From Alphaproteobacteria bacterium (lineage in GTDB: Bacteria; Pseudomonadota; Alphaproteobacteria; Rs-D84), in the NCBI GenBank assembly GCA_017535105.1, contig JAFXUI010000001.1:80945-144944 (forward strand): DNA of 64,000 nucleotides, in the 5' to 3' direction. Position 1 is the first letter of the stretch, and every line of letters begins with the position of its first letter. This document shows, in pieces, positions 9,384 to 28,741 of this stretch. The notes under the pieces were generated by a model that was not told the DNA's origin, searched no databases, and saw only the letters and a program-made list of their open reading frames with translations. The translations under genes and the position numbers were made by a program.

Positions 9384-9409
9384 GAATAACAATTGAAAGG
9401 AGAATGTCG

Positions 9410-11611
9410 ATGAAATCGCTTTTCACGCTTGTTATTGCGCTATTTTTGGTGGCACCGGTTCACGCCGAAACTGACGTGTCTTCGCGTGGCACATCACGTG
9501 TTTTACCATCGGGGGCAACTGCGATTGGTTCTGGGCGTGCGTCTGGAACGGTTGCAACTTCTCGTGGTGCACGTACTGCGACGGCGAATGTTGCGCGTCG
9601 TGCTACAACCGCCCGTACGGCTACACAAACCCCGGGTGTTGTTGCGCGTGTTGGAACGCAAACTGTTGCCGTAACGGAAAGTGGATCTTCCACCCGTATC
9701 GGTTCACGCGTACCGGGTGTTGCACGTGCCCCATCGATCAGTGTTTCATCATCGACAACGACTATTACTAAACCAACAGTCGAAGAAACAATTTCCACAA
9801 TGGAATCTGTTGCGGAATTGTCCGATCACTGCAAGGCACAATATATGGCGTGTATGGATAACTTCTGTAACGTCTTGGACGATAACCAGGGTCGTTGCAC
9901 ATGTAGTAAGAATGTCCGTAACTATGAAAAGACCGAAGAAGCATTGAAAACAGCAACCGAAGAATTGCAAGATGTTGCACAAAAGATTCAATACATCGGT
10001 TTGACAAGTGAAGAAATTGTTACATTGTTCACTCAGACAGAGGCTGAATTGGCAATGCAAAACAATTCGGACAGCACGAAACTTAAAAATGACCTTGATC
10101 GTATTAAAAATATGATTGTTGGTGTTAAAAGTGGTTCCGCCAGTTCAATTGGTGATACTACTTCGGGCATCAGTTTGGACTTGTCCAATCTGTTAAGTTT
10201 CAATATCGACAGTACTGGCTTTGATATCACATCATTGTTCACAACAACAACAAACAACAACACTGCAGCAATCACCAATCAACGTGGTGAAGCATTATAT
10301 AAAAGTGCTGCGGCACGTTGTAAAGCGGCTGTGTTGAACAGTTGTGCGTCCCAAGGTGTTGAAATTGGTGTTATCGTCAATTACTATGATATGGAAATTG
10401 ATAAACAGTGCATCTTGTACGAACGTGCGTTGACCGATGCAAATGATCAAATGGTTGCAACGGTGCGTAATGCAAAGACCGTTTTACAAAAGGCACGTTT
10501 GATGGTTGCACAGCAAAAGAATCAATATGACCTGCGTGGTTGTATCAGTGCGCTTGATTCATGTATGCAAGACGACTATGTCTGTGGCACTGATTACGAA
10601 GATTGTGTTGACCCATCTGGTAAATATATCGTAGATGGCGAAGTCGTAGCTGGTTCGATGCCTGGTATATCTGGTGGTATGTGGAAAAAGACAACCACCT
10701 CAGGATCAGGCTCCAGTGCCACCACAACGACAACCACTGAAGCCAACGCACAAAAGGGTTTATATATGACATGGAATCATGGTTCAAGTGGTTCTGAGAA
10801 AAACATTTGGTCACCAAAGGAAGCAGCAACTGGATATATCCCCTATACGATACAACAGTATATTGCTGATACCGTGTCATTAAGCAGTGCGACAAATGGT
10901 GCGACATCATCTGAAATGTCAGTGTATCTGCAGAACAAGCTGGGTTATCATGATGATGCGACCGGCCGTAACTATGGTATGTGCATATCGGTATTGAATA
11001 AATGCCAAGATTACACATACAGCGGTGGTAAATATACACCAGAAGGTAGTGCTGTGATTGCCGGATGGATGGAACGTGCATTACGTCAGATTAAGGTAAC
11101 TCAAGATACTATCTTGTCAAAGTATGCTCAGAGCTGTATTTCCGACGTAACATCATGCTTAAGCCAGAATAACTATTCATTCTATGCATCATCGTCTGCA
11201 TCAGCGGCATCTTCGTCTAATCCGACAAATATGGCGATTAGAGCTTGCTTGCCGGTTATCAATACTTGCCGTTCGGTTACATTAGGCCTTACCGACAAAG
11301 ACGTGACTATTGATGATTTGGATCCGATTTATAAATGGTTGGATGCTGCTATCGCAACATCGTTCAAAGATTCTTGTCAAAAGACTGGTGGAACATGGAC
11401 AGACGCAACTGGTGTGTGTGCATGTGCAACGGGATCAACATTGTCAAATGGTGCTTGTACTCCTCCTGCATTACCAAAGACACAAGCCGCGTGTAGTGGT
11501 ATAGCCAATGCAGAATGGAAAAACAGTGCATGTGCTTGTAAGTCTAATTATACTCCTGACTACAGTGGTTCAGTGGCAGCGTGTGTTGCGACAACGACAT
11601 CAGGCACCTAA
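9410..11611 (+). CDS. Large secreted cysteine-rich protein (signal peptide, R/T/A-rich low-complexity N-region, about 40 Cys in C-terminal two-thirds); function unknown
   Basis: ORF 9404..11611; ATG at 9410 has better RBS spacing; MKSLFTLVIALFLVAPVHA signal peptide; repeated CxC and CxxC motifs to the C-terminus. Confidence 0.7.
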   Translation: MKSLFTLVIALFLVAPVHAETDVSSRGTSRVLPSGATAIGSGRASGTVATSRGARTATANVARRATTARTATQTPGVVARVGTQTVAVTESGSSTRIGSRVPGVARAPSISVSSSTTTITKPTVEETISTMESVAELSDHCKAQYMACMDNFCNVLDDNQGRCTCSKNVRNYEKTEEALKTATEELQDVAQKIQYIGLTSEEIVTLFTQTEAELAMQNNSDSTKLKNDLDRIKNMIVGVKSGSASSIGDTTSGISLDLSNLLSFNIDSTGFDITSLFTTTTNNNTAAITNQRGEALYKSAAARCKAAVLNSCASQGVEIGVIVNYYDMEIDKQCILYERALTDANDQMVATVRNAKTVLQKARLMVAQQKNQYDLRGCISALDSCMQDDYVCGTDYEDCVDPSGKYIVDGEVVAGSMPGISGGMWKKTTTSGSGSSATTTTTTEANAQKGLYMTWNHGSSGSEKNIWSPKEAATGYIPYTIQQYIADTVSLSSATNGATSSEMSVYLQNKLGYHDDATGRNYGMCISVLNKCQDYTYSGGKYTPEGSAVIAGWMERALRQIKVTQDTILSKYAQSCISDVTSCLSQNNYSFYASSSASAASSSNPTNMAIRACLPVINTCRSVTLGLTDKDVTIDDLDPIYKWLDAAIATSFKDSCQKTGGTWTDATGVCACATGSTLSNGACTPPALPKTQAACSGIANAEWKNSACACKSNYTPDYSGSVAACVATTTSGT

Positions 11612-11888: not shown

Positions 11889-12209
11889 TTACATATTATG
11901 ATCATATCCAAAAGCTTCTAAAACTTCTGGATATAAATCTTTCCAATCAGGATTTTTCTGAATAATCAACCGTAATTTCCAATTACGATTCCATTTTTTC
12001 AATTCTCTCTCACGATAAACCATATTATTCATATCATCAATTTGTTCATAATATACCAGAATATTACAATTATATTTCGCAGTGAAAGAGTTCGGATAAA
12101 CTTTGTTTTTATGCTCAAATACACGACCAACTAAATCAGATGTTGAACCAATGTATAATGTTCCCATTGGTGCACTTGCCATAATATAAATATAACCGTG
12201 TTTTTCCAT
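11889..12209 (-). CDS. GIY-YIG nuclease family protein (UPF0213-like)
   Basis: MEKHGYIYIMASAPMGTLYIGSTSDLVGRVFEHK... GIY...YIG motif with conserved R and E; ORF-track start 12233 is a TTG extension, ATG at 12209. Confidence 0.75.
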   Translation of the reverse strand: MEKHGYIYIMASAPMGTLYIGSTSDLVGRVFEHKNKVYPNSFTAKYNCNILVYYEQIDDMNNMVYRERELKKWNRNWKLRLIIQKNPDWKDLYPEVLEAFGYDHNM

Positions 12210-12250
12210 ACTGAAAATTTTAACAATAACCAATTATTATTGCAAGTTGA

Positions 12251-12290
12251 CCCTGTGGGGCAGTGGATCCCCGCCTTCGCGGGGATGACA
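12251..12290 (-). repeat. Palindromic interspersed repeat, copy C (inverted orientation)
   Basis: Reverse complement tgtcatccccgcgaaggcggggatccactgccccacaggg matches family consensus and copy D nearly exactly. Confidence 0.7.
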
Positions 12291-12354
12291 ATAAAACGAA
12301 ATATGCGTAGAAATCACTGTTTTTGTATCACAACAGGATAATGTGTCACACCAC

Positions 12355-13434
12355 TTAATTATTAAACAGGAAGTGGCATATATCACCGTCCGCCATTACG
12401 TAATCACGACCAACTGTACGCATTTTACCGGCTTCTTTGACCGCTAATTCACCGCCTAATTCCAACCAATCAGATGGTGATATAATTTCCGCACGAATAA
12501 AACCCTTTTCGAAATCTGTATGAATCTTACCCGCGGCTTGGGGTGCCGTCATACCGCGCGTTATTGTCCATGCGTGTGCTTCCTTTGGCCCCACAGTATA
12601 GAACGTTTGTAAACCCAACGTGTCATAACCGGTTTTTATAACCTGGTCCAAACCAGATTCATTTAACCCCAGTTCCGTTAAAAACATCTTTCTTTCGTCC
12701 ACGTCTACAATTTGCGCGATTTCCATTTCTATTTTTGATGAAATTATTAGTACTGGCGCATCATTTCCGATTTTATTTTTAACCATATCGGAATATTTAT
12801 TGCCCGTTGCCGCAGATTCTTCATCAACATTACATACATAAATTACCGGCTTTGCAGTTAATAAATTAAATGGCGCGGCATTTACACCCGACTTTCGTGC
12901 CGGTGTGCCAGATTCCAGACCCGATTTAATTGTATTTGCGTCTGCCAATAATTTTATCGCATCTTTATCCAGGCCGTGCGCTTTTTTCTCAAGATTTTTT
13001 ATTTGTTTTTCAATACTTTCAAGGTCGGCCAATGCAAGTTCTGTTTCAATTGTATCAATATCCGCAAGTGGATCAATTTTACCGTTTACGTGTACAATAT
13101 CATCATTTTCAAAGCAACGTACCACGTGAATTATCGCGTCCGTAGATAATATATTCCCAAGGAATTTATTACCCAAACCTTCACCGGTTGATGCACCACG
13201 AACAAGCCCCGCAATATCAACAATTTCAAGTTGTGTTGGTATAATTTTCGCCGCGTTCACTGTTTTTGCCAATTCCAATAAAGTCGCATCCGGTACAACC
13301 ACGTGACCGGTATTTGGCTCAATGGTACAAAACGGATAATTTTGCGCGTCCGCCGCGGCGCTTTGTGTCAGCGCATTAAACAGTGTTGATTTTCCAACAT
13401 TCGGCAACCCAACAATTCCACAATTGAATCCCAT
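12355..13434 (-). CDS. ychF: Ribosome-binding ATPase YchF (Obg-family GTPase-like)
   Basis: 359 aa; MGFNCGIVGLPNVGKSTLFNALT G1 motif, TGS C-terminal domain. Confidence 0.95.
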   Translation of the reverse strand: MGFNCGIVGLPNVGKSTLFNALTQSAAADAQNYPFCTIEPNTGHVVVPDATLLELAKTVNAAKIIPTQLEIVDIAGLVRGASTGEGLGNKFLGNILSTDAIIHVVRCFENDDIVHVNGKIDPLADIDTIETELALADLESIEKQIKNLEKKAHGLDKDAIKLLADANTIKSGLESGTPARKSGVNAAPFNLLTAKPVIYVCNVDEESAATGNKYSDMVKNKIGNDAPVLIISSKIEMEIAQIVDVDERKMFLTELGLNESGLDQVIKTGYDTLGLQTFYTVGPKEAHAWTITRGMTAPQAAGKIHTDFEKGFIRAEIISPSDWLELGGELAVKEAGKMRTVGRDYVMADGDICHFLFNN

Positions 13435-13454
13435 ATAAAAATCCTTTATAATTT

Positions 13455-14144
13455 ATGCGTAATATGTCATACATGTGGGAAAATTTCAATATAAAACCAA
13501 TGCCCGCGGAAACAATTGTTTACCGCGATGGTGAATATTGCGCCGAACTTTCTACAATAAAAAATGGCCCGATAAATAAAAATTATGTTTTACCAGTTCA
13601 TATTATTTATGTTGGTGAAATTGCCGGTAAAAAAGAATTAAATATCGATGTAAATATCGATAATCAACCGGTCTTTTTATCGGTAAATATAAAAAATAAA
13701 TTACCGGCCTTTTTTAATATTTTTATCAAAAACACCGGTAAAAATTCTGAAATTCGTGGGCATATTATTTTGGATAATAATGGTTCATTGGAATATAATT
13801 GTACCGCCGAACATTTGTCGGCAAATACCGGTGTTTTTTTACAAAATAAACTTATTGCTAATAAAAATTCTGTATCTAAATTATCGGGTGTCGCAATTAT
13901 AAATAAAGATTGTCCGGAATGTAATTCAGATATATCTTTTTCAGCCATCGCTGATAAAGATGCAAAAATTGAATTTTTACCGGCGCAGCGCATTTCGTCC
14001 GTACCACAAAATGCGGGGCACAGTGCATCGATTTATTCACCTAAACCAATCCAGATTCAATTTTTACGTTCAGCCGGTTTATCATCAACTGAAATTACTG
14101 ACGTTATGCGTGAAGCATTTATAAACGATTTTTCATTATTTTAA
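13455..14144 (+). CDS. SufB/SufD-family protein, short form (SufD-like C-terminal beta-helix)
   Basis: C-terminal HSASIYSPKPIQIQFLRSAGLSSTEITDVMREAFINDF aligns with the SufD C-terminus (HGATVGQLDDEALFYLRSRGISQQDAQQMIIYAF); only 229 aa and no sufB/sufC neighbours; start uncertain because the divergent gap to ychF is only 20 bp. Confidence 0.45.
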   Translation: MRNMSYMWENFNIKPMPAETIVYRDGEYCAELSTIKNGPINKNYVLPVHIIYVGEIAGKKELNIDVNIDNQPVFLSVNIKNKLPAFFNIFIKNTGKNSEIRGHIILDNNGSLEYNCTAEHLSANTGVFLQNKLIANKNSVSKLSGVAIINKDCPECNSDISFSAIADKDAKIEFLPAQRISSVPQNAGHSASIYSPKPIQIQFLRSAGLSSTEITDVMREAFINDFSLF

Positions 14145-14149
14145 TAAAA

Positions 14150-14181
14150 AAAGTATTCATAAGAAAATATCCTTATGAATA
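14150..14181 (-). terminator. Rho-independent terminator downstream of rpmJ (bidirectional hairpin)
   Basis: GTATTCATAAG-aaaatatc-CTTATGAATAC, followed on minus strand by TTTTTTTA. Confidence 0.55.
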
Positions 14182-14218
14182 CATAAAAATACCGTTATGC
14201 ATAATGCATAATTCAGAT

Positions 14219-14353
14219 TTATTTTTTCTTAAAGCCTTGTTTTGCTTTTAACTTTGGATTATCAGGATCAATCAAGATAACCTGTTTACCACGACGAATT
14301 TGTTTAATATTGCCGCGTTTTTTCCAAGCCTTTAATGAACTTAAAAATTTCAT
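14219..14353 (-). CDS. rpmJ: 50S ribosomal protein L36 (alpha/mitochondrial type, cysteine-free)
   Basis: 44-aa ORF absent from the ORF track: MKFLSSLKAWKKRGNIKQIRRGKQVILIDPDNPKLKAKQGFKKK; matches alphaproteobacterial L36 pattern MKxxxSLKxxKxRxxxxxxVRRxGxxYVINKxNPRxKARQG. Confidence 0.75.
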   Translation of the reverse strand: MKFLSSLKAWKKRGNIKQIRRGKQVILIDPDNPKLKAKQGFKKK

Positions 14354-14448
14354 ATCTAAATCCTTTTTGCAGGGGTGATTATACATGCTTTTTCTAAAAA
14401 ATCAAATAATTATTATATTTTTTGTTGTTTTTATTGTACCTGTTTATA

Positions 14449-14643
14449 TTGTTGAAAAAAGTTATTAGTAATTTTTTAACAAGTTTTTAACAATTTTTTC
14501 CCAGAAATCTAATATTTTTTAACAAATTGTTGAAAAAATAATCATTATTTTAACATGTTGAAAAATACCTATTTTTGAACCAAATAAACTTTTTCATAAA
14601 AACACTTTTTATACTTGTTAAAAATTGTTGAAATTATTATAAT
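14449..14643 (+). promoter_or_regulatory. AT-rich control region upstream of virB3: four copies of TTGTTGAAAAA (14449, 14527, 14555, 14625), interleaved TTAACAA motifs, promoter TTGTTA(14616)-16 nt-TATAAT(14638)
   Basis: Direct repeats seen in sequence; -35/-10 spacing 16; GGAGAG RBS before ATG 14663. Confidence 0.45.
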
Positions 14644-14662
14644 TCAATCATTCGGAGAGAAA

Positions 14663-14959
14663 ATGAAACAGCAAGTATTGAAAGCTTTGGCAAATCCTGC
14701 GCGCATATTTTACGTGCCGTATAATTTGGCCGTGCTTAATTTTGCCGTACAATTCATTGTTTTTATGATATTTTTTATGATTGATTTATTTATAAACCAG
14801 GCGAATATGACAATTTCACCATTGTATTTTTTAATATCGGTGATAATTGTTCATTCTGTGTTGGGTGTGTTTTGTAAAAGGGATCCGCAACTGGGTCAGA
14901 TTGTGGTGGCCAAGATTCAGTTGTTTAAAAGAAAAATACCGGGAAAATTGGTGGCGTAA
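14663..14959 (+). CDS. virB3: Type IV secretion system protein VirB3/TrbD family
   Basis: About 99 aa from ATG 14663 (ORF track starts earlier at 14615); LKALANPARIFYVPYNLAVLNF matches VirB3 motif (LxKGLTRPxMxxGVPy), two TM helices; stop overlaps virB4 start. Confidence 0.7.
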   Translation: MKQQVLKALANPARIFYVPYNLAVLNFAVQFIVFMIFFMIDLFINQANMTISPLYFLISVIIVHSVLGVFCKRDPQLGQIVVAKIQLFKRKIPGKLVA

Positions 14960-17380
14960 ATGAACGAATTTTTTAATTATTTTGCCGGTGGTGGATATTC
15001 TATAACCATGACGATTTTGGTTATGGCGGTTATTTTCGTATTTATTGTTTTAATGCTTTATATCCCATCATTGTCGCGCCGCATATTCCCAAGTTTTGGT
15101 TATCGTCATTATGCGAATTATTTGCCGTTCAAAAATGTCTATAATGATAACACGATATCTTTGACCGATGGGTCACTGTTGCGTGTGTATCGTGTGTCTG
15201 GTGTCCAGACCAGTATGCAAGATGACGCGACCCGCGAAAAATTCTTGGATTTACGTGCGCAATTATTTAATCAAATTCGTGATCCAAATGTGACGTTACG
15301 TTTTTACATGGTGCGTGATGCGGCGGCGGATAATGAAAACTATGAATTTGATAATCAGGTTTTACAGGGTATTTATAACAAATGGCGCGCCCAGGGTTTA
15401 CGTATATTTATAAATAATTATTATATTGTGATTTCTGTGGCTGGTGGTGGCGCGCGTGAAAAATTAAATCAATATTGTAATTATATTGAATCAATATTGG
15501 CGGCGTATAAACCAAAGGTATTGAATAATAATACACGTGATAATATGGCGCGATTCTTTGGTCGTATTTTATCACCGATAAGCAAGCCCGCCCCGGTCGT
15601 TGCCGATAATAAAATTGCAGAGGCAGTGACGGTTGACGATGTTATATTTGAACGTGATGGAATTGTCCGCTATGTCAGTGGGGGCGCGCAAATGTTTGCG
15701 GCGGCGTTATCTTTCCGTATATCGCCAGATTATCTGGACGAAGATTTCTTTAATTCAATATCAACCATACAAACAGAAATGATTTGTATGAATGGTTTTC
15801 ATATCATGGGAACGGCGGATATTGAATCAACATTTCGTCAACGTAAATCAACCGCAGACGAAAATGAAACATCTACATTGGCCCAGGTGTCGGCGGCGCA
15901 AAGTGCGATGGACGAAAACATTTCTGGAAACCAGAGTTTGGTAAATTACTATCCGCTGTTTGTGATATTTGGTGCGACCGTTGAAGAATTAAACAAGTAT
16001 GTTGATGAGTTCAAAAAGATATCGGCATCGTTTGGTGTATCGCCAATTGTTGAAACATTTGCGTCAAAGGTTTCTTGGTTTTCACAAATACCGGGATTTG
16101 ATGTTTTCCCACGCAGTTTCAAGTTGCTGTCAAAAACGGCGGCGGTTTGTATCCCGATGTCCAGCACGCCACGCGGAATTGAAAATTCTGATTGGGGTCC
16201 GGGACCATTGGTTGTTTTCCCAACGGCCCAGGGTACACCATATATGTTCCAATTCCATGTTTCAGACAAACCAACCGCGGTGGGACATACATTAACAATC
16301 GGTCCAACCGGTGGTGGTAAAACAACTTTGTTCAGTTTTTTAATCGCGCAATCGTTGCGTCACCCAAAACTGAAAGCGTTTTTCTTTGACAGAAACAAGG
16401 GTGCCGAAATATTCACTTTGGCGGTTGGTGGAAAATATATCACTATGCGGGGCAAGGAAAAGAATACCGATCCAATGGCGAAAACTTTTGAAACGCGGTT
16501 GAATCCATTAAAGATGCCGGATACACCGGAAAATCGCGCGTTTTTGCGTCGTTGGTTTGCGATTATATCGGGACAAAATGACGCGGCGTCCGCCGATGAA
16601 ATTGCACGTGCGGTTTCGGTCAACTTTGATTATTTGTCGGACAAGGATAGGGTGCTGAAAAACCTTTGGGAAAGTTGTTTTTCGTCCAGTGGCGAAATGC
16701 GTGCGCCATTAAAGAAGTGGGTTGACCCATTACAATATGGCGATATGTTTAATGAAGACAGCGATACACTTGATTTGGGTGCGCGTCTTACAACATTTGA
16801 TTTTACCGATATTTTACAGGACGAGGTTTTATCGCCTGCGGTTATTTCATACATATTGCACCGTATAAACACGACAACGGTATCTGGTGGAAATCCATCA
16901 CTTATTATGATTGATGAAACAGCGCCAATGTTGGAAAACAAAATGTTCCGCGATAACTTTATTGCCGGCTTACAAGAAGGGCGCAAAAACCGTCAGGCAT
17001 ATATGGTCGCGTTCCAGCGCGCAAACGTTTTGGATAAACTTGGTATTGGTGATGTTGTTCGTGGCCAGGCGCAAACGGTATTATTCTTCCGTAATCCAGC
17101 CGCCGATGCGGGCGACTATGCACATTGGAATCTGAACCCGTTGGAAATGGCATTTATCCAGGGCAAGGCATATCCAAACTTGAAACGTGCGGTATTGTTG
17201 TCGCGTCCGGTAAATGGGGAATCGGTCATATTAAATACGGAACTTGGTGGGCTGGGCAATTTATTGCGCCTGTTTGAATCGGGTCGTCCATCGGTATTAC
17301 TGGCCGAAGAATTGTATAAAATGTATGGCGCGAATTTTGTTGCGGAATATCTGAAAAAGCAATCTGGCGGAAATGTTTAA
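14960..17380 (+). CDS. virB4: Type IV secretion system ATPase VirB4/TrbE/CagE family
   Basis: 806 aa; Walker A GPTGGGKTTL, Walker B LIMIDETAP; size and architecture of VirB4. Confidence 0.9.
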   Translation: MNEFFNYFAGGGYSITMTILVMAVIFVFIVLMLYIPSLSRRIFPSFGYRHYANYLPFKNVYNDNTISLTDGSLLRVYRVSGVQTSMQDDATREKFLDLRAQLFNQIRDPNVTLRFYMVRDAAADNENYEFDNQVLQGIYNKWRAQGLRIFINNYYIVISVAGGGAREKLNQYCNYIESILAAYKPKVLNNNTRDNMARFFGRILSPISKPAPVVADNKIAEAVTVDDVIFERDGIVRYVSGGAQMFAAALSFRISPDYLDEDFFNSISTIQTEMICMNGFHIMGTADIESTFRQRKSTADENETSTLAQVSAAQSAMDENISGNQSLVNYYPLFVIFGATVEELNKYVDEFKKISASFGVSPIVETFASKVSWFSQIPGFDVFPRSFKLLSKTAAVCIPMSSTPRGIENSDWGPGPLVVFPTAQGTPYMFQFHVSDKPTAVGHTLTIGPTGGGKTTLFSFLIAQSLRHPKLKAFFFDRNKGAEIFTLAVGGKYITMRGKEKNTDPMAKTFETRLNPLKMPDTPENRAFLRRWFAIISGQNDAASADEIARAVSVNFDYLSDKDRVLKNLWESCFSSSGEMRAPLKKWVDPLQYGDMFNEDSDTLDLGARLTTFDFTDILQDEVLSPAVISYILHRINTTTVSGGNPSLIMIDETAPMLENKMFRDNFIAGLQEGRKNRQAYMVAFQRANVLDKLGIGDVVRGQAQTVLFFRNPAADAGDYAHWNLNPLEMAFIQGKAYPNLKRAVLLSRPVNGESVILNTELGGLGNLLRLFESGRPSVLLAEELYKMYGANFVAEYLKKQSGGNV

Positions 17381-17984
17381 GAAAATCTTTATTTTGCCGA
17401 TAATGTTTTTTTGCTTTTCTGCAAATGCCAATGAATGTATGGCGTATAAAATAAAACCAAAAATCACAATCACAACCCCCGAATATGAAAAGCACGTTGT
17501 CCAATCAAAAAAGCCAATGAATCTGCTGCATGGCAACGTTGTTGCAACATTGGTTGATAACTATGATATTGTCGTGGAAATTAGCAAAATAAAAGATGGT
17601 TATTGTGTTGGTTTGAAATCGGTTGCGGCAACAATAGGGTACACCGATTTTATGGTAAAAATAGATTCCCGACATGGTGTAAATACTTGTTCGTACAAGG
17701 CGATATTAAATCACGAAAACCGGCACATAGACGCATACATATCGGTAATTGACGATAATAAACAAGATTTATACGATGCGATTTATTCGGCGGCAGACAG
17801 TATAATGCCGATATTTGTAAAGTCGCAAATGGACGCGGACAGCGCCGTTGAAAAAATGAACAGCGAATTACAAACACACCCCGATGTTGTTCTGGCGATA
17901 CAAAAGATTCACGCAGATGAAGAGATAAAAAATAAAAATATAGATAAACAAGAAAACTATTCTGAATTGAAAAGTTGTTTATAA
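17373..17984 (+). CDS. Secreted protein with HENRH (HExxH) motif; possible DUF922-like zinc metallopeptidase; co-transcribed with virB4
   Basis: Signal peptide MFKKIFILPIMFFCFSANA; NHENRHIDAY motif; 8-nt overlap with virB4 end. Confidence 0.55.
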   Translation: MFKKIFILPIMFFCFSANANECMAYKIKPKITITTPEYEKHVVQSKKPMNLLHGNVVATLVDNYDIVVEISKIKDGYCVGLKSVAATIGYTDFMVKIDSRHGVNTCSYKAILNHENRHIDAYISVIDDNKQDLYDAIYSAADSIMPIFVKSQMDADSAVEKMNSELQTHPDVVLAIQKIHADEEIKNKNIDKQENYSELKSCL

Positions 17985-17988
17985 CAAA

Positions 17989-18010
17989 AACCGCCAAGAT
18001 GGCGGTTTTT
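17989..18010 (+). terminator. Bidirectional rho-independent terminator
   Basis: AAAAACCGCCAAGATGGCGGTTTTT. Confidence 0.65.
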
Positions 18011-18027
18011 ATGTACATAGCGACTTT

Positions 18028-18282
18028 TTATTTTTGATTATCTGGGTTATTTGGGTCATCGTGAATATATTTTACAAAGTCATCAATCTTTTGTCCGGTC
18101 GAAGATAAAATCTTGGCAATACTGCCGGTTGATGGCCAACGTGGTTGACCAAATTTTGACCAGCGTTTGCTTTTATTAAATGTTGTTGGGTCTAAACCAC
18201 TTGACCGCGCAAGGCCCGAACAAGACATTCCGTGTTCGCACGCAAATTTTTCAATTGCCAACCATATCTGATCATGTGTCAT
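18028..18282 (-). CDS. Small HTH DNA-binding protein, phage CI/LexA-N-terminal-like family (paralog 1)
   Basis: 84 aa from ATG 18282 with GGGGAGAG RBS: MTHDQIWLAIEKFACEHGMSCSGLARSSGLDPTTFNKSKRWSKFGQPRWPSTGSIAKIL...; no peptidase S24 domain. Confidence 0.7.
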   Translation of the reverse strand: MTHDQIWLAIEKFACEHGMSCSGLARSSGLDPTTFNKSKRWSKFGQPRWPSTGSIAKILSSTGQKIDDFVKYIHDDPNNPDNQK

Positions 18283-18359
18283 TTTTCTCTCCCCGTTTTT
18301 GTTTTTCGGAACAGTTGAATTATGTGGCAAAAAAAGGCTTATTTTCAATAGGTTGGTTA

Positions 18360-18367
18360 TCCTAGGA
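18360..18367. promoter_or_regulatory. Palindromic motif TCCTAGGA (CCYAGGAA half-site family) upstream of paralog 1
   Basis: Perfect 8-nt palindrome about 78 bp upstream of the minus-strand HTH gene start. Confidence 0.3.
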
Positions 18368-18541
18368 AATATTAGAACAAATAAAAATGATGATATGTTT
18401 TTATAAAAATACATAAAATATATTAGGAAAAATTGTCAATTTATAATAGATATTTATGTGCTGTATGTACCTGTTTTCCAAGTTTTTTTAATATAACGAT
18501 TCCTTTTTTAGAAACCCATTACATAAAAATGGGATAACAAA

Positions 18542-18565
18542 AATTCCCAGGAATTAAAATATAAT
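18542..18565 (+). promoter_or_regulatory. Operator-like palindrome AATTCCcaGGAATT abutting -10 TATAAT (18560-18565) of paralog 2
   Basis: 6-nt perfect arms with 2-nt centre, immediately upstream of TATAAT and 32 nt before AAGGAG-ATG of gene 18597. Confidence 0.4.
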
Positions 18566-18596
18566 GGACCGCGGTCATACAAAAAAGGAGATTAAA

Positions 18597-18824
18597 ATGA
18601 CTCATCAAGAGATCTGGCAAGCCATTGATAATTTCGCTTTTCAGCAAAAGATGTCTTGTTCTGGATTAGCAAAATTTGCAGGTTTAGATGCGACAACATT
18701 TAACAAAAGCAAACGTTGGTCTAAATATGGACAACCGCGGTGGCCGTCCACAGGCAGTATTGCCAAAATATTAAACTCTACGGGGAAAACAATAAGCGAT
18801 TTTATAAAATGTATTTGTGACTGA
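18597..18824 (+). CDS. Small HTH DNA-binding protein, paralog 2 of 18028..18282 (divergently oriented)
   Basis: 75 aa from ATG 18597 (AAGGAG 6 nt upstream): MTHQEIWQAIDNFAFQQKMSCSGLAKFAGLDATTFNKSKRWSKYGQPRWPSTGSIAKIL...; about 75% identical to paralog 1. Confidence 0.7.
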   Translation: MTHQEIWQAIDNFAFQQKMSCSGLAKFAGLDATTFNKSKRWSKYGQPRWPSTGSIAKILNSTGKTISDFIKCICD

Positions 18825-18868: not shown

Positions 18869-19627
18869 ATGTCTACATTAAAATCAAAAATACTTTTATT
18901 GAAAGAACTATTGGCACTGAAGGAAGTTGTTGATAAGGGTAGTATCCAAACCGCCGCTGGTGAAAACGGCATTAAAAATTCTAATCTATCCACTTTGATT
19001 AAAAATTTGGAAGATAGATTTAATACTAAACTTATCAACCGTGGTGTCGGTGGCAGTCAACCGACAAATTCAACCCAGATGATATACAACGATATTTGTG
19101 CCATAGAAGAAATACTTAACAAAATCACAGAAAACTTTGTTGATATGGACTCTTTGTCTGGGTCTGTTTCTGTCTGGACAGAAGAGGGCTTAATCGGCAG
19201 TTTTATTCTTAAAGATTTGTCAGAGTTTTATGCGAAATATCCAAAAATTCGTCTTGAATTGTTGATGAAGCAAGAACCCGATATTTCCACAATGGATATT
19301 TTGATTATCAAATCAAAAATTCACCCAAATATTCATGGGCATATTTTGTTCAAGTTCAAGACATCGCTGAAATTCTATGCAAGTAAAAAATACCTTAATG
19401 AACGCGGCGTTCCGAAAAACATAAACGATTTATTGGAAAATCACGATTTGTGTATGTCAAGTCGCTATATGAATTTACCGGAATACAAGGGGTTGATGAA
19501 ACGGGCAAAGCACCTGAATACCACATCAGATTCACTGGCGTTGATATACCGACTTGTTAATGATGGTGATGGTATAACGTTTTCCCATCGTGGTTTGAAG
19601 AATGCAGTAAAGAACTTGTGTGTTTAG
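18869..19627 (+). CDS. LysR-family transcriptional regulator, apparently frameshifted (C-terminal about 45 aa continue in another frame to 19770)
   Basis: N-terminal HTH LKELLALKEVVDKGSIQTAAGENGIKNSNLSTLIKNLEDRFNTKLINR; LysR substrate-binding domain; downstream frame encodes ...ELVCLEDLDFNFETEIQCICRTEIAESPKVQAFVNFFIDF, a typical LysR C-terminus. Confidence 0.65.
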   Translation: MSTLKSKILLLKELLALKEVVDKGSIQTAAGENGIKNSNLSTLIKNLEDRFNTKLINRGVGGSQPTNSTQMIYNDICAIEEILNKITENFVDMDSLSGSVSVWTEEGLIGSFILKDLSEFYAKYPKIRLELLMKQEPDISTMDILIIKSKIHPNIHGHILFKFKTSLKFYASKKYLNERGVPKNINDLLENHDLCMSSRYMNLPEYKGLMKRAKHLNTTSDSLALIYRLVNDGDGITFSHRGLKNAVKNLCV

Positions 19628-20554: not shown

Positions 20555-20631
<77 letters not shown>

Positions 20632-20644
20632 ATAAGTGCTGTTT

Positions 20645-20672
20645 ATTATATACTAAAATCACCAAGTGTCAA
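20645..20672 (-). promoter_or_regulatory. Consensus sigma70 promoter for tRNA-fMet (TTGACA-16 nt-TATAAT on minus strand)
   Basis: Reverse complement catTTGACActtggtgattttagtaTATAATaaacagcacttat then tRNA 5' end. Confidence 0.65.
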
Positions 20673-20706
20673 ATGAAATGTGGAAAATATGTCCGTGCTT
20701 TTCGGT

Positions 20707-20746
20707 TGTCATCCCCGCGAAGGCGGGGATCCAGTGCCCCGCAGGG
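20707..20746 (+). repeat. Palindromic interspersed repeat, copy D
   Basis: tgtcatccccgcgaaggcggggatccagtgccccgcaggg. Confidence 0.7.
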
Positions 20747-20799
20747 AATTTATAATTGTGTCGCGACAAAGTCGCGTGCATTGTTATTTACTGTCTGCG

Positions 20800-20835
20800 A
20801 CGCAGTGGATACCGGCCTTCGCCGGTATGACGAGT
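20800..20835 (-). repeat. Palindromic interspersed repeat, diverged copy E (inverted)
   Basis: Reverse complement cactcgtcataccggcgaaggccggtatccactgcg; same architecture with CCGGCGAAGGCCGG core. Confidence 0.5.
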
Positions 20836-20909
20836 GTGATGTATTCTTTGTACCGGTCACTAACGTCGCACCCTTGCATATTGCTTTTTTTATTGCTAAA
20901 CTTGTGAAC

Positions 20910-22615: not shown

Positions 22616-23553
22616 CCACATTATTAAAAACTATAAAATTAGTGGGCAAAGGTATTCATTCGGGGTTGTCAGTTGAAATAAAAATCAAACCGTCAAAAAA
22701 GCCGGGTATTTTCTTTCAGCGCGTTGACATCGCAGGGTCAAAACCGATGCCCGCAAAATACGATAATGTGGGTGAGGCGAAAATGCGCAACACCACGATT
22801 GGCGCTGTATCGGGCGCGCATGTACAAACAGTTGAACATTTAATGGCGGCATTATTTATTTGTGGTGTGGACAGTGCGTTGGTTGAAATAAATGGGGCGG
22901 AAACACCAATTATGGACGGCAGTGCGTTTTTGTTCATAAATGAAATTATGCGGGCCGGTGTGACGCGCGGAAAAATGCGTAAGATTATTGTTAAAAAGCC
23001 GGTTGTCGCCTATACACGTGAAGTGCGACGTGAATTACCAAAACTGTTTCGGTTGAAATTATGGATTGCTGACAAAATCGCGCATCGTAAAAGTGATGGT
23101 TTTGTAAAACTTTCGCCAAATGATGGAAAATCATTGGATATAACTGCGACACTGGTTTATCCAGAAAAAATTATTGGTTCACAAACATATTCTTATGCTT
23201 TTGACGGAACAAAAAAGTCTGCGAACACGTTTATAAAGCAAATTGCACGTGCGCGTACTTTTGGAAAATATTCCGAATGGGAATACCTTAAAAAACACGG
23301 TATGGGGCGGGGCGCAGACGAAACAAATGTAATCGCGCTGAATAACGCAGGTGATGGAACATTAAACAAACTTATGTGGCCGGACGAATTTGTGCGACAC
23401 AAGATAATTGATGCGGTTGGCGATATGGCAACATCGGGTGGTATCATTTGTGGAAAACTGGAATCATATAAGGGAAGTCATGCACTGAATAATATCGTGT
23501 TGAAAAAGTTGTTCAGTGATGTTGAAAATTATGATATAGTTGAAGAGAAATAA
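22612..23553 (+). CDS. lpxC: UDP-3-O-acyl-N-acetylglucosamine deacetylase
   Basis: 313 aa from ATG 22612 (GGGAGA RBS): MTTLLKTIKLVGKGIHSG...HVQTVEHLMAAL..., LpxC hallmarks; ATGA overlap with lpxK. Confidence 0.9.
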   Translation: MTTLLKTIKLVGKGIHSGLSVEIKIKPSKKPGIFFQRVDIAGSKPMPAKYDNVGEAKMRNTTIGAVSGAHVQTVEHLMAALFICGVDSALVEINGAETPIMDGSAFLFINEIMRAGVTRGKMRKIIVKKPVVAYTREVRRELPKLFRLKLWIADKIAHRKSDGFVKLSPNDGKSLDITATLVYPEKIIGSQTYSYAFDGTKKSANTFIKQIARARTFGKYSEWEYLKKHGMGRGADETNVIALNNAGDGTLNKLMWPDEFVRHKIIDAVGDMATSGGIICGKLESYKGSHALNNIVLKKLFSDVENYDIVEEK

Positions 23554-23569
23554 AAATACGGGGGAAACT

Positions 23570-23950
23570 ATGAAGAAAATATTTGCTTTATTGGGAATTC
23601 TTGCACTGGCGGCATGTGGCGGTATGATTAAAAATGAAAACGGCAGTGAATTTATCACCCAATTAGACGCGGAACCAATCGGTTGTACATTTTTGTATAA
23701 ATTGGAAACAGAGGTCAGTGTTTATGATGCCGAAGATGCACGCCGGTATATGGAAAACCGTATCGCAGACCAGGCACGTCCGGGTAATGCGTACTGGATT
23801 GTTTCCCAACGTACAAAACCAAATGAATGGGTAATATTTGGCCCAGAACGTTCGTTTGTCTTGGTTGCAAACGTGTATGATTGTCCACACCCAAGTAATA
23901 TGCGCACTGCGCGTGACGGTGGGTCGGCGACAGCATCGTATGGGTATTAA
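23570..23950 (+). CDS. Lipoprotein of unknown function
   Basis: MKKIFALLGILALAACGG lipobox; GGGGGA RBS; 126 aa. Confidence 0.6.
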   Translation: MKKIFALLGILALAACGGMIKNENGSEFITQLDAEPIGCTFLYKLETEVSVYDAEDARRYMENRIADQARPGNAYWIVSQRTKPNEWVIFGPERSFVLVANVYDCPHPSNMRTARDGGSATASYGY

Positions 23951-23976
23951 TAAATCTGGTTTTTTTATAAGATTTT

Positions 23977-24012
23977 GTCCCGTCAATAAAAATGACGGGA
24001 TTTTTTATTCTG
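23977..24012 (+). terminator. Strong rho-independent terminator
   Basis: GTCCCGTCAATAAAAATGACGGGATTTTTTATT. Confidence 0.75.
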
Positions 24013-24025
24013 TGTTTGCCAAGGC

Positions 24026-25330
24026 GTGTTATTTTGTGTTATAATTACACAAAAGCAGAGAGAGAAATTGACAAATCAAACAGTAACGGTTCGTAAAAGG
24101 AAGTATGCCGTTGATCTTTTTTGGCAACCGGTGTCTTCGCGTGGGGGTGGGCGCAGTGGCGCGCACCGTCTTGCGCATGAAATTGATGGCCGTTACAGCC
24201 TGTATATCGAATACAACCAAATGATTGGCCTTGCCATGCGCAAGAGCGGCGCACGGCGCGGAATGGCATCTGCGGCAGCCGAGGTTGTAGAAGCAATGTC
24301 GGAACATTCGACATTTTTGGCGGCGTTTGAAATAAATGGCGGTTTTTATATTGTTGCGGTTCGTAACGGTATTATTTTACAAGATAAATTTTATGATTCT
24401 GAATCTGCGGCACGAAATGAATATTCGGCACTTGCGGAAATGCCTGATTGGGCGGCCTTTATCGCGCCAAGTGCATGGGGAATGCCACGTGCGGTTGAAT
24501 ATAAATTGGAAGATGTTATAACCGGCCATTCGCATGCGACATTGCGGTCGATAAGTTTATATGGTTCGCTGATTGTTTCGGTTGGTTTAATTGTTTTGTT
24601 TGTCGGAACAATGCTCTGGATTTTCAGTGACCCGATTGTACAAACGGTTTCACCACGTTCAGAAATTGGAAAGGTTGATTCTGAATTGGCTGCGGAATAT
24701 AAACGCCAGGTTGAACAGAAAAACAAACAGTTAGATGCGGAATATAACATCGAAAAGAAATTACCCCCAGAACCGATTGTTTTGCCGTACGAAATTTTGC
24801 CGGATATGATGGGGCGGGCCGATGTTTGCTATCGTGCGATTGGATTTTTAATGCAACAGATTCCGGGTTGGATTCAAACACGTGTAAAGTGTGACGAAAC
24901 ACACGCAACGGCACAAATTCGTCGTTCGTTTGGAACGTTGGGTGATTTTTATACTGTGGCATCTGATTTGATGCCGGGCGCATACGTTCAAGAATTGTCT
25001 GATGATTTGGTTTCTGTGCGTGTTAAATTGCCAGACGTTGATATTGTCCCAAGTCAAGATGAACGTGATGCGGATACAATTGTTCGTGATGTGACAACAC
25101 TGTTCCAGGGTATAAATACATCGGCGGAAATTCACGCGGTCACAGACACGGTGACAAATGGTGTTGATACTGAAAACTTTGATATCGTTGAAATTGCAGC
25201 ATCGTCAAAAATGGTGCCAATGCAGTTTATGCAAATATTTGCAGATTTCGGCGGTGTTTATTTGACGGCGTGTGATTGGAATTATTCTAATCGCACATGG
25301 AACTATGAGGTGATAATCTATGCTAAATAA
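24026..25330 (+). CDS. Bitopic inner-membrane assembly protein, GspL/BfpC/PilO(R64)-like (cytoplasmic about 180 aa, one TM, periplasmic about 220 aa); first gene of orphan T2SS/T4bP-like cluster
   Basis: Single TM LYGSLIVSVGLIVLFVGTMLWIF mid-protein; architecture and position before PilP-like protein, GspE ATPase and GspF platform; likely real start TTG 24068 after TGtTATAAT (24037-24045) and GAGAGAGA RBS. Confidence 0.45.
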   Translation: MLFCVIITQKQREKLTNQTVTVRKRKYAVDLFWQPVSSRGGGRSGAHRLAHEIDGRYSLYIEYNQMIGLAMRKSGARRGMASAAAEVVEAMSEHSTFLAAFEINGGFYIVAVRNGIILQDKFYDSESAARNEYSALAEMPDWAAFIAPSAWGMPRAVEYKLEDVITGHSHATLRSISLYGSLIVSVGLIVLFVGTMLWIFSDPIVQTVSPRSEIGKVDSELAAEYKRQVEQKNKQLDAEYNIEKKLPPEPIVLPYEILPDMMGRADVCYRAIGFLMQQIPGWIQTRVKCDETHATAQIRRSFGTLGDFYTVASDLMPGAYVQELSDDLVSVRVKLPDVDIVPSQDERDADTIVRDVTTLFQGINTSAEIHAVTDTVTNGVDTENFDIVEIAASSKMVPMQFMQIFADFGGVYLTACDWNYSNRTWNYEVIIYAK

Positions 25331-26015
25331 AATAAAAATGTTTATGGTGTGTGTGCTTGTTGGTGGCATGTTTGCAACCACAGCGTCATATTCCGCGACC
25401 GAAGAAATATTGGTTGATGATGTTGATATGGAAGAAGTTTCGGCCGATGCGGTTGCGAACTATGATGTTTCGGGCAGTGTGTTCCAACAAATAACCGATT
25501 TGGAACAAGAAAAAGTTTTAATGCAACTTGAAAAAGAACGCGCACAACTGGATTTAGATTTAGACAGATTGGCCGCAGAAAAAATAAAACTGCACATGGA
25601 AATTGATGCGTTGTCTGGCCGCGCAGATGTACAACAGCAAGAACTGGAAACCCAAATGGCAAAATTGGAAGCAGAAGCCGTACGTTTGGAAAAAGAAAGA
25701 GAAAAATTAGAAGCCGAAGATGAAAAACCAACTGCGTCTTCAAAATCATCATCGGGTTCTTCGTCCAGTTTGTTTGCCGAAGAAGAAAAGAAAGACAATC
25801 CTATTTCCAAAAAATATAAATTGGTGAATGTTATTGGTGCGGGTTCCCAACTTCAGGCAACAATTGCAGATTTGGCAACCGGTCAAAACAAACGTATTTC
25901 AGCAGGACGTGTTTTAGATGGATATGTTGTTAAATCTATATCGCTGGACGAAGGTGTTGTGTTGGTCAAAGGTTCCGACACACAAACATTAAACGTGAAC
26001 AACAACTCAAAATAA
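25320..26015 (+). CDS. PilP/GspC-like periplasmic protein (N-terminal anchor, coiled coil, Ser-rich linker, C-terminal beta domain)
   Basis: MLNKIKMFMVCVLVGGMFATTASYSA; coiled coil LEQEKVLMQLEKERAQLDLDLDRLAAEKIKL...; C-terminal KYKLVNVIGAGSQLQATIADLATGQNKRISAGRVLDGYVVKSISLDEGVVLVKG resembles PilP/GspC HR domain. Confidence 0.45.
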   Translation: MLNKIKMFMVCVLVGGMFATTASYSATEEILVDDVDMEEVSADAVANYDVSGSVFQQITDLEQEKVLMQLEKERAQLDLDLDRLAAEKIKLHMEIDALSGRADVQQQELETQMAKLEAEAVRLEKEREKLEAEDEKPTASSKSSSGSSSSLFAEEEKKDNPISKKYKLVNVIGAGSQLQATIADLATGQNKRISAGRVLDGYVVKSISLDEGVVLVKGSDTQTLNVNNNSK

Positions 26016-26028
26016 TTTAAGTGAAAAA

Positions 26029-27669: not shown

Positions 27670-27670
27670 T

Positions 27671-28741
27671 ATGAGTCGTTTGGACCTTTGGTATGCACGT
27701 TTAGTTTTTCGTATGAATACGGAAAAACGTATGGCGACACTTCGTAAGTTGGCGTCACTGTTGCGTAACGACTTTACATTAATGGACGCATTAAACCGTA
27801 TTGAAATGATTGAATCGCACGGTGGCACAAAACCCAATGAACCGTTCGCGATTGTTATGCGCCAGTGGCAGAAAAACCTTGAACGTGGTATGAGTTTTTC
27901 CGATACGACGCGCGGTTGGTTGCCAGATGATGAAACACTTTTGGTGACAAGTGGTAATATTTCTAATTTGGTTGTTGCACTTGAAAACACAACACGTGTG
28001 GTCGAAGGCGCAGAACGTATCCGCCGTGCTATGCGTAATGCGTTGGCGTACCCGTTGTTTTTGTTAGCATTAACATTTGGTATAATCGTTATGGTTGGAT
28101 TGTACCTTGTTCCGCCATTGATTGAGGTTGCCGGTAACGGTATTATATGGCGTGGTGTTGCCGGTGGCTTGATTTCTTTATCTGACTTTATGGTGGTAAG
28201 TTGGTATTGGTTTGTTATAGGTATGTTCTTGCTGTTCGTGTTTGTCGGTCTGTCTTTGGAAAATTGGTCGGGCCGTTTGCGTGCCAAGTTCGATAAAATA
28301 CCACCATGGAACATTTATAAAATTCGTATATCGGTTGGTTGGTTGATGTCATTATCATCAATGGTTGCGGCGGGTATTACAATGCCGGACGCAATGCGTA
28401 TGTTGGCGGATAATTCAAGCAAGTATTTGCGCGATATATTGGAAGAAACATTACACAATATCGCAAACGGTGAAAACTTGGGCCAGGCATTGTTAAATAC
28501 TGGACGTGATTTTCCAAACTCTGAAATCATCGGTGACTTGATGATTTACGCAGATATGAATGATTTTGATAAAAACTTAACAGCCATAGCCAATGACTAT
28601 CTGAATGATTCTGTGCGCAAAATGGAAGCAATATCGAATGTGTTAAACAGTATCGGTATTTTAATGGTTTCTGGAATAATCGCATGGGTGGTTTTGGGAA
28701 CGTTCCAGATGCAAGATCAAATCACAGCGGCATTAAGTTAA
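27671..28741 (+). CDS. GspF/PilC-family inner-membrane platform protein
   Basis: 356 aa from ATG 27671 (TAATATG overlap with the ATPase gene); two cytoplasmic repeats and three TMs, typical GspF architecture. Confidence 0.8.
   Translation: MSRLDLWYARLVFRMNTEKRMATLRKLASLLRNDFTLMDALNRIEMIESHGGTKPNEPFAIVMRQWQKNLERGMSFSDTTRGWLPDDETLLVTSGNISNLVVALENTTRVVEGAERIRRAMRNALAYPLFLLALTFGIIVMVGLYLVPPLIEVAGNGIIWRGVAGGLISLSDFMVVSWYWFVIGMFLLFVFVGLSLENWSGRLRAKFDKIPPWNIYKIRISVGWLMSLSSMVAAGITMPDAMRMLADNSSKYLRDILEETLHNIANGENLGQALLNTGRDFPNSEIIGDLMIYADMNDFDKNLTAIANDYLNDSVRKMEAISNVLNSIGILMVSGIIAWVVLGTFQMQDQITAALS

Follow-up and report, generated by a model that had tools for sequence, protein, structure and literature searches.

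The best described counterparts of the locus analysed here are the VirB-type type IV secretion systems (T4SS) of the Rickettsiales, in which the rvh genes form an 'archipelago' whose islet A comprises virB3-virB4a-virB6a-e (PMC2653234). In the Anaplasmataceae the sodB promoter heads the list of virB-locus promoters bound by EcxR (PMC9657007), and Wolbachia ribA is regulated together with the virB8 operon (PMC3518464). Our locus lies in a 64-kb stretch of DNA, referred to throughout as the window, from 'Candidatus Enterousia', a gut alphaproteobacterium of the order Rs-D84. The window is chromosomal, with 41% GC, and carries mreCD-pbp2-rodA, topA, dnaG, ychF, gyrB, uvrB and tRNAs. Enterousia and other Rs-D84 members are common, uncultured gut alphaproteobacteria. 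Enterousia has a genome of 0.75-1.0 Mb and lacks both the tricarboxylic acid cycle and a respiratory chain (PMC12306168), and with genomes below 1 Mb and no respiration a dependence on partners is probable (PMC12306168). A literature search found no description of secretion systems in Enterousia or Rs-D84.

We propose a model in which virB3, virB4 and a downstream gene for a secreted 203-residue HExxH protein (p203) form an islet in a reduced-genome Rs-D84 host, the spacer upstream of virB3 is an operator array, p203 is a passenger, and a 27-codon open reading frame (ORF) within the spacer arose by chance. Taken as a whole this explanation fits our observations best, and we hold it with moderate confidence. 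Transcription would start from a sigma-70 extended -10 promoter (TATAAT at 14638..14643) and run to a hairpin at about 17986..18013. Two tandem 10-bp repeats, TTGTT(G/A)AAA(A/T), would occupy the -35 region of virB3, and some nine further 9-mer copies in both orientations would fill the spacer as far as the divergent rpmJ promoter, thereby making up the operator array. A sequence-specific regulator, perhaps of OmpR/PhoB/VirG type to judge from the layout, would bind this array. The p203 protein would descend from an ancestral envelope (periplasmic) metallopeptidase whose gene, in the Rs-D84 lineage, later joined the transcription unit of virB3-virB4. The genes and signals concerned are as follows.

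14354..14662, no strand: control region of 309 bp and 19% GC, with a TGTTNAAAA / TTTTNAACA repeat array
14615..14643, plus strand: predicted virB3 promoter, TTGTTA-17-TATAAT, from a consensus scan with 10/12 matches
14654..14659, plus strand: virB3 ribosome-binding site, GGAGAG, read directly from the sequence
14663..14959, plus strand: virB3, 98 residues, PF05101 at E 3.9e-9 and 37.1 bits against a cut-off of 23.9; gene-called at 98 residues on the source scaffold
14960..17380, plus strand: virB4, 806 residues with an N-terminal membrane segment, PF03135 at E 1.7e-11 and 44.9 bits against a cut-off of 21
17373..17984, plus strand: p203, 203 residues with a signal peptide and an HENRH motif, putatively of an unannotated zincin-like family
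17986..18013, both directions: predicted intrinsic terminator, hairpin ACCGCCA-AGA-TGGCGGT between an A-run and a T-run, from direct reading

The virB3 product is a small membrane protein with a PF05101 match, encoded directly 5' of virB4, and the virB3 TAA stop abuts the virB4 ATG. The virB4 translation retains intact Walker A (GPTGGGKT) and Walker B (LIMIDE) motifs and matches TIGR00929 over residues 173-799 (E 2e-113); as its 380 bits fall below the NCBIfam cut-off of 643, we class it as a divergent member of the VirB4 family of ATPases. The p203 reading frame overlaps the virB4 stop by 8 nt (ATGTTTAA), and this overlap, the signal peptide and the HENRH motif were all found in the sequence just as a preliminary description of the window had given them. 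Because the genes adjoin or overlap, with a single predicted promoter 5' and a single predicted terminator 3' of them, virB3, virB4 and p203 most reasonably constitute one operon, which agrees with the co-transcription proposed in that description. The gene following the operon (18028..18414) is convergent. Within the predicted promoter the -10 hexamer is invariant in the alignment of related spacers and the preceding TG is near-invariant; nearly all aligned relatives carry the extended -10 TG-n-TATAAT, in the form TGTTATAAT (or TG-G/A-TATAAT) with TTGTTG as -35, the window and its two closest relatives being without the TG. Assigning each upstream repeat to a promoter of its own as a -35 element was rejected, no -10 element being present at a suitable spacing.

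The pair is isolated, as had been claimed. Neither virB6, virB8, virB9, virB10, virB11 nor virD4 was recognised in the window or within up to 10 kb in the related loci, a result obtained by inspecting the first ~110 residues of the ORFs with 120 or more residues and by Pfam and NCBIfam scans of unassigned ORFs, not by a systematic hidden Markov model (HMM) scan. Neither virB1 nor virB5 is present at the virB3-virB4 locus, and the unassigned ORFs of the window gave no secretion-system match apart from a type IVb pilus module at 24-28.7 kb. One relative with a reduced genome of 40% GC (L085) holds, at 12940..15050 on the minus strand, two paralogous CagX/VirB9-like fragments (146 and 268 residues) and three small membrane ORFs. 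This cluster, 4-6 kb from a p203 homologue, may be a different secretion islet, and no homologue of it was found among the Enterousia loci.

The unit is conserved in 80 genomes at species level from animal and human guts, whose labels are 'Candidatus Enterousia' or uncultured Alphaproteobacteria and whose VirB4 is 77-90% identical to that of the window. The p203 sequence itself was found, as an exact match, on a metagenome scaffold of 166 kb. The order virB3-virB4-p203 is found in all 80 loci, and in 79 the distance from the virB4 stop to the p203 start is about 90 nt at most. Divergent rpmJ lies upstream in 77, which are all the loci reaching that far, the other three beginning inside or just upstream of virB3. 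The same order is present in L090 and in L087, a distant relative of 54% GC in which VirB4 is 59% and the p203 homologue about 32% identical, so that the 203-residue protein is kept beside virB4 in the 80 loci and both of these further genomes. L087 also keeps the start/stop overlap, and its flanks differ, with rpmJ 3' of p203 and a tRNA and DUF374-lpxK-lpxC upstream. Since the order persists in L087 despite the changed flanks, the triplet is old and tightly linked. Flanks are variable among the closer relatives as well; the genes 3' of p203 differ among genomes, and ychF/sufBD are inverted or moved in several. Six genomes (L019, L028, L029, L044, L045, L049) have an inverted ychF/sufBD downstream of p203, a pattern that we read as an inversion of the whole rpmJ-spacer-virB3-virB4-p203 block relative to both flanks. 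The GC skew at third codon positions (GC3 skew) of the operon in these six loci has decayed from +0.33 to +0.06, in line with inversion.

The second element of the model is the control region, which is longer than the 260 bp first assigned to it. Four copies of an 11-mer had been described there; two exact copies of TTGTTGAAAAA do lie in the spacer (14449, 14527), and the other two exact copies in the window are isolated elsewhere (9050, 29522 (minus strand)), the window total of 4 standing against 0.44 expected. The underlying motif is TGTTNAAAA, with G or less often A as the central base. Near copies on the plus strand are ATGTTGAAAAA at 14555, TTGTTAAAAA at 14615 and TTGTTGAAAT at 14625, reverse-complement copies occur at 14472, 14483, 14515 and 14548, and the core TGTTGAAA has 4 of its 15 plus-strand hits in the spacer, which makes up 0.5% of the window. 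The main sites are listed here.

14449..14459, plus strand: repeat TTGTTGAAAAA, site S2, exact copy
14472..14493, minus strand: two reverse copies 11 bp apart (TTTTTTAACAA, GTTTTTAACAA), sites S3-S4, here also readable as TTAA-N7-TTAAC
14515..14537, no strand: imperfect palindrome TTTTTTAACAA-A-TTGTTGAAAAA, one reverse copy and site S5
14548..14565, no strand: imperfect palindrome TTTTAACA-TGTTGAAAAA, sites S6-S7
14615..14634, plus strand: tandem repeats TTGTTAAAAA-TTGTTGAAAT, sites S10-S11, with a 10-bp period, on the -35 region, near-invariant in 71 genomes

Over 1.59 Mb of related sequence TGTTNAAAA reaches 16.9 copies per kb in the spacer, whereas the rest of the non-coding DNA has 0.76 and coding DNA 0.31 per kb, and this 22-fold enrichment over other non-coding DNA means that the motif is not general to AT-rich spacers. 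Spacer length is 307-325 bp in 71 of the 78 genomes compared for length, and some 11 motif positions stay in register throughout the 71 genomes that were aligned. The strongest block, CTTGTTGAAAATTGTTGAAATTGTTATAAT, is near-invariant and holds both the extended -10 and the tandem repeats on the -35, and tandem motif pairs are essentially confined to the virB3 spacer. With such density and such conservation of register, the repeats do look like the iterated regulator sites that had been suggested, as far as prediction goes. Furthermore, the array is kept upstream of virB3 in L087, although rpmJ is no longer the upstream neighbour there, and it was not found in L085 upstream of a p203 homologue that lacks virB3/virB4, which places it with virB3.

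Tandem direct repeats on the -35 region with additional upstream sites are the layout of OmpR/PhoB/VirG-type response regulators, and this is the layout of the spacer, where TTGTT(G/A)AAAA-TTGTTGAAAT recurs with a 10-bp period over the -35 at 14615..14634. No response-regulator gene was recognised in the window. Given that RNA covariation is lacking (see below), a protein operator is the preferred reading, and the array is best read as the putative operator of a sequence-specific DNA-binding protein. A CtrA box was considered and rejected; the window has TTAA-N7-TTAA (within 14472..14493), but no more than 34 of 78 genomes (44%) share it, and at the key CtrA-box position 254 motif copies have C and 152 have T. 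When further members of a regulon were sought over the 1.59 Mb, tandems, pairs or clusters of the motif were found only in the same spacer, in a dispersed CCGG/T-run repeat and as one pair at the 3' end of the window's lpxC. The dispersed repeat, CCGG-TTTTTTTAACA-TTTTTATTAAAAA-(G/C)ACCGG, carries a TTTT(T/C)AACA core and was seen in a few genomes (L039 7162..7283, L036 6268..7377, L015, L061, L074), downstream of ychF or within a small ORF.

For the third element, p203, Pfam and NCBIfam gave no matching model, even with E allowed up to 10. Its close homologues number 220, all unnamed, and a profile search of 1.8 billion representatives returned 540 relatives (50%-identity clusters, E<=0.001). 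In an alignment of 32 Enterousia sequences C22, C78, C106, C202, H53, H114-E115-x-x-H118, H169 and D191 are invariant. The 73 distant relatives (~20-25% identity; 200-280 residues) have HExxH and the Asp equivalent to D191 invariant, and keep the Cys residues and a C-x-N-W at the C-terminal end. An AlphaFold2 model of p203 (predicted local distance difference test score 90.4) has two short strands, a long beta-hairpin, the HExxH helix and four further helices. HExxH sits in helix 106-128, and the candidates for the third metal ligand are D191 (helix 170-193), invariant in both alignments, and H169, invariant in Enterousia only. Against the PDB, a sequence search returned only noise and Foldseek no significant match.

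The preliminary description had called the protein DUF922-like, a label that finds no support at the level of HMMs. DUF922 (PF06037) is not matched by p203 at E up to 10, and its gathering threshold of 27 bits was reached by none of the relatives scanned. One of the 32 Enterousia members matches at E 0.2 and none at E<0.1; among the 73 distant relatives, scanned one by one, 8 match below threshold (best E 0.0023). DUF922 is the commonest of the sub-threshold Pfam matches among the relatives, followed by eCIS_core, Tox-MPTase2, M56 and SprT-like, which a few relatives match. Our conclusion is that p203 belongs to a separate, unannotated family, probably zincin-like, with DUF922 as its nearest Pfam neighbour. 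In comparison with DUF922 and with minimal zincins such as IrrE/PprI, CapP, SprT/Spartan and selecase, p203 relatives reach no family threshold, and the long N-terminal beta-hairpin, the four conserved Cys and, in the relatives, C-x-N-W are specific to the p203 family. As a large, unannotated alphaproteobacterial family of secreted proteins, mostly some 200-250 residues long, with a confidently predicted fold and no close solved relative, it is a target for structural and functional work whether or not it is linked to secretion.

Among the alternatives the one that survives best, which we consider somewhat unlikely, would make p203 a genuine T4SS accessory, namely a periplasmic metallopeptidase that opens peptidoglycan as a stand-in for VirB1 or that processes a pilin or channel subunit. 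It would account for a p203-virB4 linkage kept in 80/80 genomes and distant L087 despite flank rearrangement and an apparent block inversion, and for the start/stop overlap in both the window (8 nt) and L087. It is also consistent with the lack of virB1 and virB5 at the locus, where p203 occupies the usual virB5 place after virB4, and with the presence, in four distinct distant loci (five fetched), of a lytic-transglycosylase-like gene two positions upstream of the p203 homologue. A fusion to Sel1 and a peptidoglycan-binding domain is seen in P0255, a family member that, however, carries a degenerate HExxQ rather than HExxH. Set against this, the family is widespread away from virB4. Of 16 distant loci fetched, 14 were screened by tblastn, and 13 of these lack virB4 near the p203 homologue, L087 alone having it; apart from L087 and the loci whose neighbours are described below, the distant loci have no virB3/virB4 within 6 kb. 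A metagenome scan with 10 sequences of the family returned 9 loci. Some homologues are instead translationally coupled to unrelated genes (adenylate cyclase, amylase-family protein). Nor does p203 match VirB5, TrbJ or VirB1 models at E up to 10, and its model is unlike a VirB5-type helix bundle, and on these grounds a VirB5 analogue was rejected; together with the 13 loci without virB4 this upholds the earlier statement that the protein is not a canonical T4SS component. VirB5/TraC minor pilins resemble p203 in being secreted proteins of ~200 residues encoded right after virB4, and the VirB1 lytic transglycosylase in a possible cell-wall-remodelling role, but p203 has neither sequence nor fold similarity to them and its homologues are common without secretion genes.

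The widespread occurrence of the family without virB4 nearby favours a passenger, a reading for which sodB and ribA in the virB operons of the Anaplasmataceae are a precedent. The p203 family thus predates the virB4 association and is independent of it, p203 is most likely a passenger, an ancestral envelope metallopeptidase joined to virB3-virB4, and a role in secretion is on the evidence of context the less probable of the two. In five loci, four of them distinct, the p203 homologue stands in a string of genes for FGase, an SLT-like protein, an adenylate/guanylate cyclase (716-728 residues), the homologue itself and an ArfB-like protein, with the cyclase and p203-homologue genes overlapping by 4 nt where gene calls exist. 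The string, in which the cyclase is a membrane protein and the ArfB-like protein has an RF-1 domain, was found in L081, L083/L096, L094 and L095, GC-rich alphaproteobacteria of free-living type, four counted as distinct out of the five fetched; L083 has rpmJ 6 kb upstream of it. The 716-residue upstream partner had been considered as VirB4-like and was rejected on recognition as an adenylate/guanylate cyclase. Elsewhere a p203 homologue stands beside DUF374-kdtA-lpxK-lpxC in one locus and after an amylase-family gene in another. P0255, of 456 residues, combines its p203-family domain with the Sel1 repeat and a C-terminal peptidoglycan-binding domain (PF01471 E 1.5e-14).

Several points weigh against the proposed model. 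The rest of the system was not located, and the description of virB3-virB4-p203 as one islet of a dispersed VirB-type T4SS consequently leans on the analogy with the Rickettsiales. Promoter, transcription start and terminator have all been predicted from consensus. The spacing of the repeats, at 9, 10 and 11 bp, is looser than that of classical response-regulator boxes, and the motif occurs also in the small dispersed repeat of a few genomes. Finally, the tight and very long-lived linkage of p203 to virB4, with a start/stop overlap in two distant lineages, fits a functional partnership as well.

An ambitious version of the model, which we regard as unlikely, would have a dedicated Rs-D84 regulator read the ~11 sites (TTGTTGAAA) to switch on virB3-virB4 along with a new periplasmic zinc-peptidase family, recruited as a T4SS accessory for VirB1 replacement or subunit processing; in a bolder variant the sites would be altered DnaA boxes that couple expression of the ATPase to replication initiation.

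VirB4 is conserved about as strongly as a housekeeping GTPase, and the regulatory region is conserved between species and even at 54% GC, which argues that the T4SS is central to the lifestyle of these bacteria. The repeat array is a practical starting point in the search for the regulator and the genes that it controls.

The array could also be explained without any dedicated regulator, as phased A/T tracts that serve as an UP-element, as curved upstream DNA or as a target of nucleoid proteins, boosting or silencing both divergent promoters. We think this very unlikely. A/T tracts do recur every ~10 bp beside the promoter and the spacer is very AT-rich even in the 54%-GC relative, but curvature has no need of invariant TGTT and AACA cores or of orientation and register conserved over 71 genomes, and other AT-rich spacers hold the motif at a 22-fold lower density.

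Highly improbable, in our estimate, is that the AT-rich array is a chromosomal origin or a cluster of DnaA sites with the virB3 promoter at its edge and TTTT(C/T)AACA a variant DnaA box. The relaxed DnaA box consensus is TTWTNCACA. The motif is one mismatch away from it and present in both orientations, and the spacer has 19-30% GC and a constant length, but the altered position is the conserved C of the DnaA box, boxes near TTATCCACA (<=1 mismatch) are absent from 14354..14662, and the whole window holds 26 against 25.3 expected. GC3 skew was followed in the window, the 80 loci, a 10-kb leftward extension and L087. It steps, in plus-strand sense, exactly at the rpmJ|virB3 spacer near 14400, from ~0 on the left to ~+0.25 on the right with genes on both strands, and the step is reproduced across 74 typically arranged loci with an origin-like polarity and no symmetric flip. 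Support for an origin comes from a replication-linked term of about +0.26 over 50 kb to the right, as against about -0.04 to the left, falling to -0.1 to -0.17 at greater distance, and from the proneness of the region to rearrangement and the position of gidA ~34 kb left of the spacer. Opposed to it are the missing symmetric sign flip, the 74% of left-flank ORFs on the plus strand, which would be head-on to replication, the behaviour of L087, in which the array travels with virB3 and no skew switch is seen, and the lack of dnaA, hemE and parAB nearby.

That the repeats act in RNA, through hairpins of inverted copies in a leader or small RNA or through a 27-residue leader peptide coupling translation to expression, is almost certainly wrong. 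Inverted copies are able to pair, RNAalifold pairs S8/S9 with S10/S11, and a subset of genomes has a GC-rich hairpin and T-run in mid-spacer with apparently compensatory changes. On the other side, RNAalifold gives compensatory change in 0 of 14 predicted pairs and a covariation term of -0.11, and Rfam has no match at E up to 1. The only credible promoter is downstream of the array, neither the window nor many of the genomes have the mid-spacer hairpin, and the 27-codon ORF is without a start codon in 68 of 71 genomes. The mid-spacer hairpin (alignment columns 158-176, window ~14500..14520) takes forms such as GCCGG/CCGGC, CTTAG/CTAAG and CCTTG/TAAGG and is degenerate in the window and many genomes; as it is missing in many and the alignment there is out of register, it was not counted as a structure. 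What occupies the other end of the spacer is the predicted promoter of rpmJ, a gene that the preliminary description had not recognised.

14219..14353, minus strand: rpmJ (ribosomal protein L36), 44 residues, PF00444 at E 1e-4, divergent neighbour on the common spacer
14378..14405, minus strand: predicted rpmJ promoter, TTGATT-16-TATAAT, consensus scan 10/12, both hexamers in near-invariant alignment blocks
14385..14468, plus strand: 27-codon ORF, not a gene, overlapping the rpmJ promoter

RpmJ is 89-100% identical in 77 loci (tblastn). The 27-codon ORF had been put forward as a hydrophobic peptide gene, and was rejected as a chance reading frame over this promoter. Only 3 of 71 genomes have the ATG, which is ACA or ACG in 67, and indels shift the frame; its supposed ribosome-binding site, AGGGGTG, is the sequence immediately upstream of the rpmJ -10 hexamer on the minus strand. 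The partial tblastn matches of the ORF reflect conservation of the promoter.

Other features of the window touch the model less directly. Two paralogous small helix-turn-helix (HTH)-like ORFs, at 18028..18414 (minus strand) and 18564..18824 (plus strand), have in common the stretch SCSGLA..D.TTFNKSKRWSK.GQPRWPSTGSIAKIL, and a LysR-type regulator follows the pair at 18869..19627. A PDB sequence search with the small ORFs gave no match and synteny was seen only in the two closest genomes (L001, L002), on which grounds they were rejected as EcxR-type regulators. A type IVb (R64 thin-pilus-like) assembly module occupies 23540..28741 on the plus strand, directly after DUF374-lpxK-lpxC. Its genes encode a lipoprotein, a 434-residue PilO-like protein (PF06864 in the L090 orthologue), PilP (TIGR03021 E 8e-9), a T2SSE ATPase (E 4e-63) and a T2SSF platform protein (E 6e-24), and neither pilin nor secretin was recognised near it. 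Two copies of TGTTGAAAA (23498, 23520) lie ~50-75 bp upstream of its lipoprotein gene. A secreted protein of 735 residues (9404..11611, plus strand), whose N-terminal region is rich in Ala, Thr and Arg and which matches no family, was found in the close relative L093 and not at the corresponding position in L090. Short dispersed repeats at ~12200..12330 and 20660..20900 read 'WIPAFAGMT' in several frames on both strands, adjoin tRNA-Met (20555..20631) and the 3' end of ychF, and have the appearance of a palindromic repeat element family.

With regard to known operators, the Agrobacterium vir boxes of VirG and the Pho, ArcA and CtrA operators resemble the array in having short direct repeats about one helical turn apart on or replacing the -35, with extra upstream copies, but TTGTTGAAA matches none of them and is spaced at 9-11 bp. 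The rvh system of the Rickettsiales shares with our locus chromosomal, vertically conserved VirB-type genes in scattered islets of a reduced alphaproteobacterial genome, with virB3 directly before virB4 and no virB5 (PMC2653234); the Enterousia islet, in contrast, ends after virB4 with no virB6 and a zincin-like gene next, belongs to a gut Rs-D84 bacterium rather than to the Rickettsiales, and its other islets were not located. In the Anaplasmataceae (sodB-virB3-B6 in Ehrlichia/Anaplasma and ribA-virB8-D4 in Wolbachia, with EcxR, ApxR and wBmxR; PMC9657007, PMC3518464), a non-secretion gene likewise stands in a virB operon and the virB promoters are likewise AT-rich; there small HTH regulators act on them, as a dedicated DNA-binding protein would here. 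In Enterousia the passenger gene, which codes for a secreted HExxH protein, follows the virB genes, the locus could be linked to no EcxR-type regulator, and the array is far more regular than any described in the parts of those reports consulted. What merits further work is the deeply conserved operator-like array and the unannotated, putatively zincin-like family, and neither overturns current understanding. The operon appears to be a form, peculiar to its lineage, of the dispersed virB islets described for the Rickettsiales (PMC2653234).

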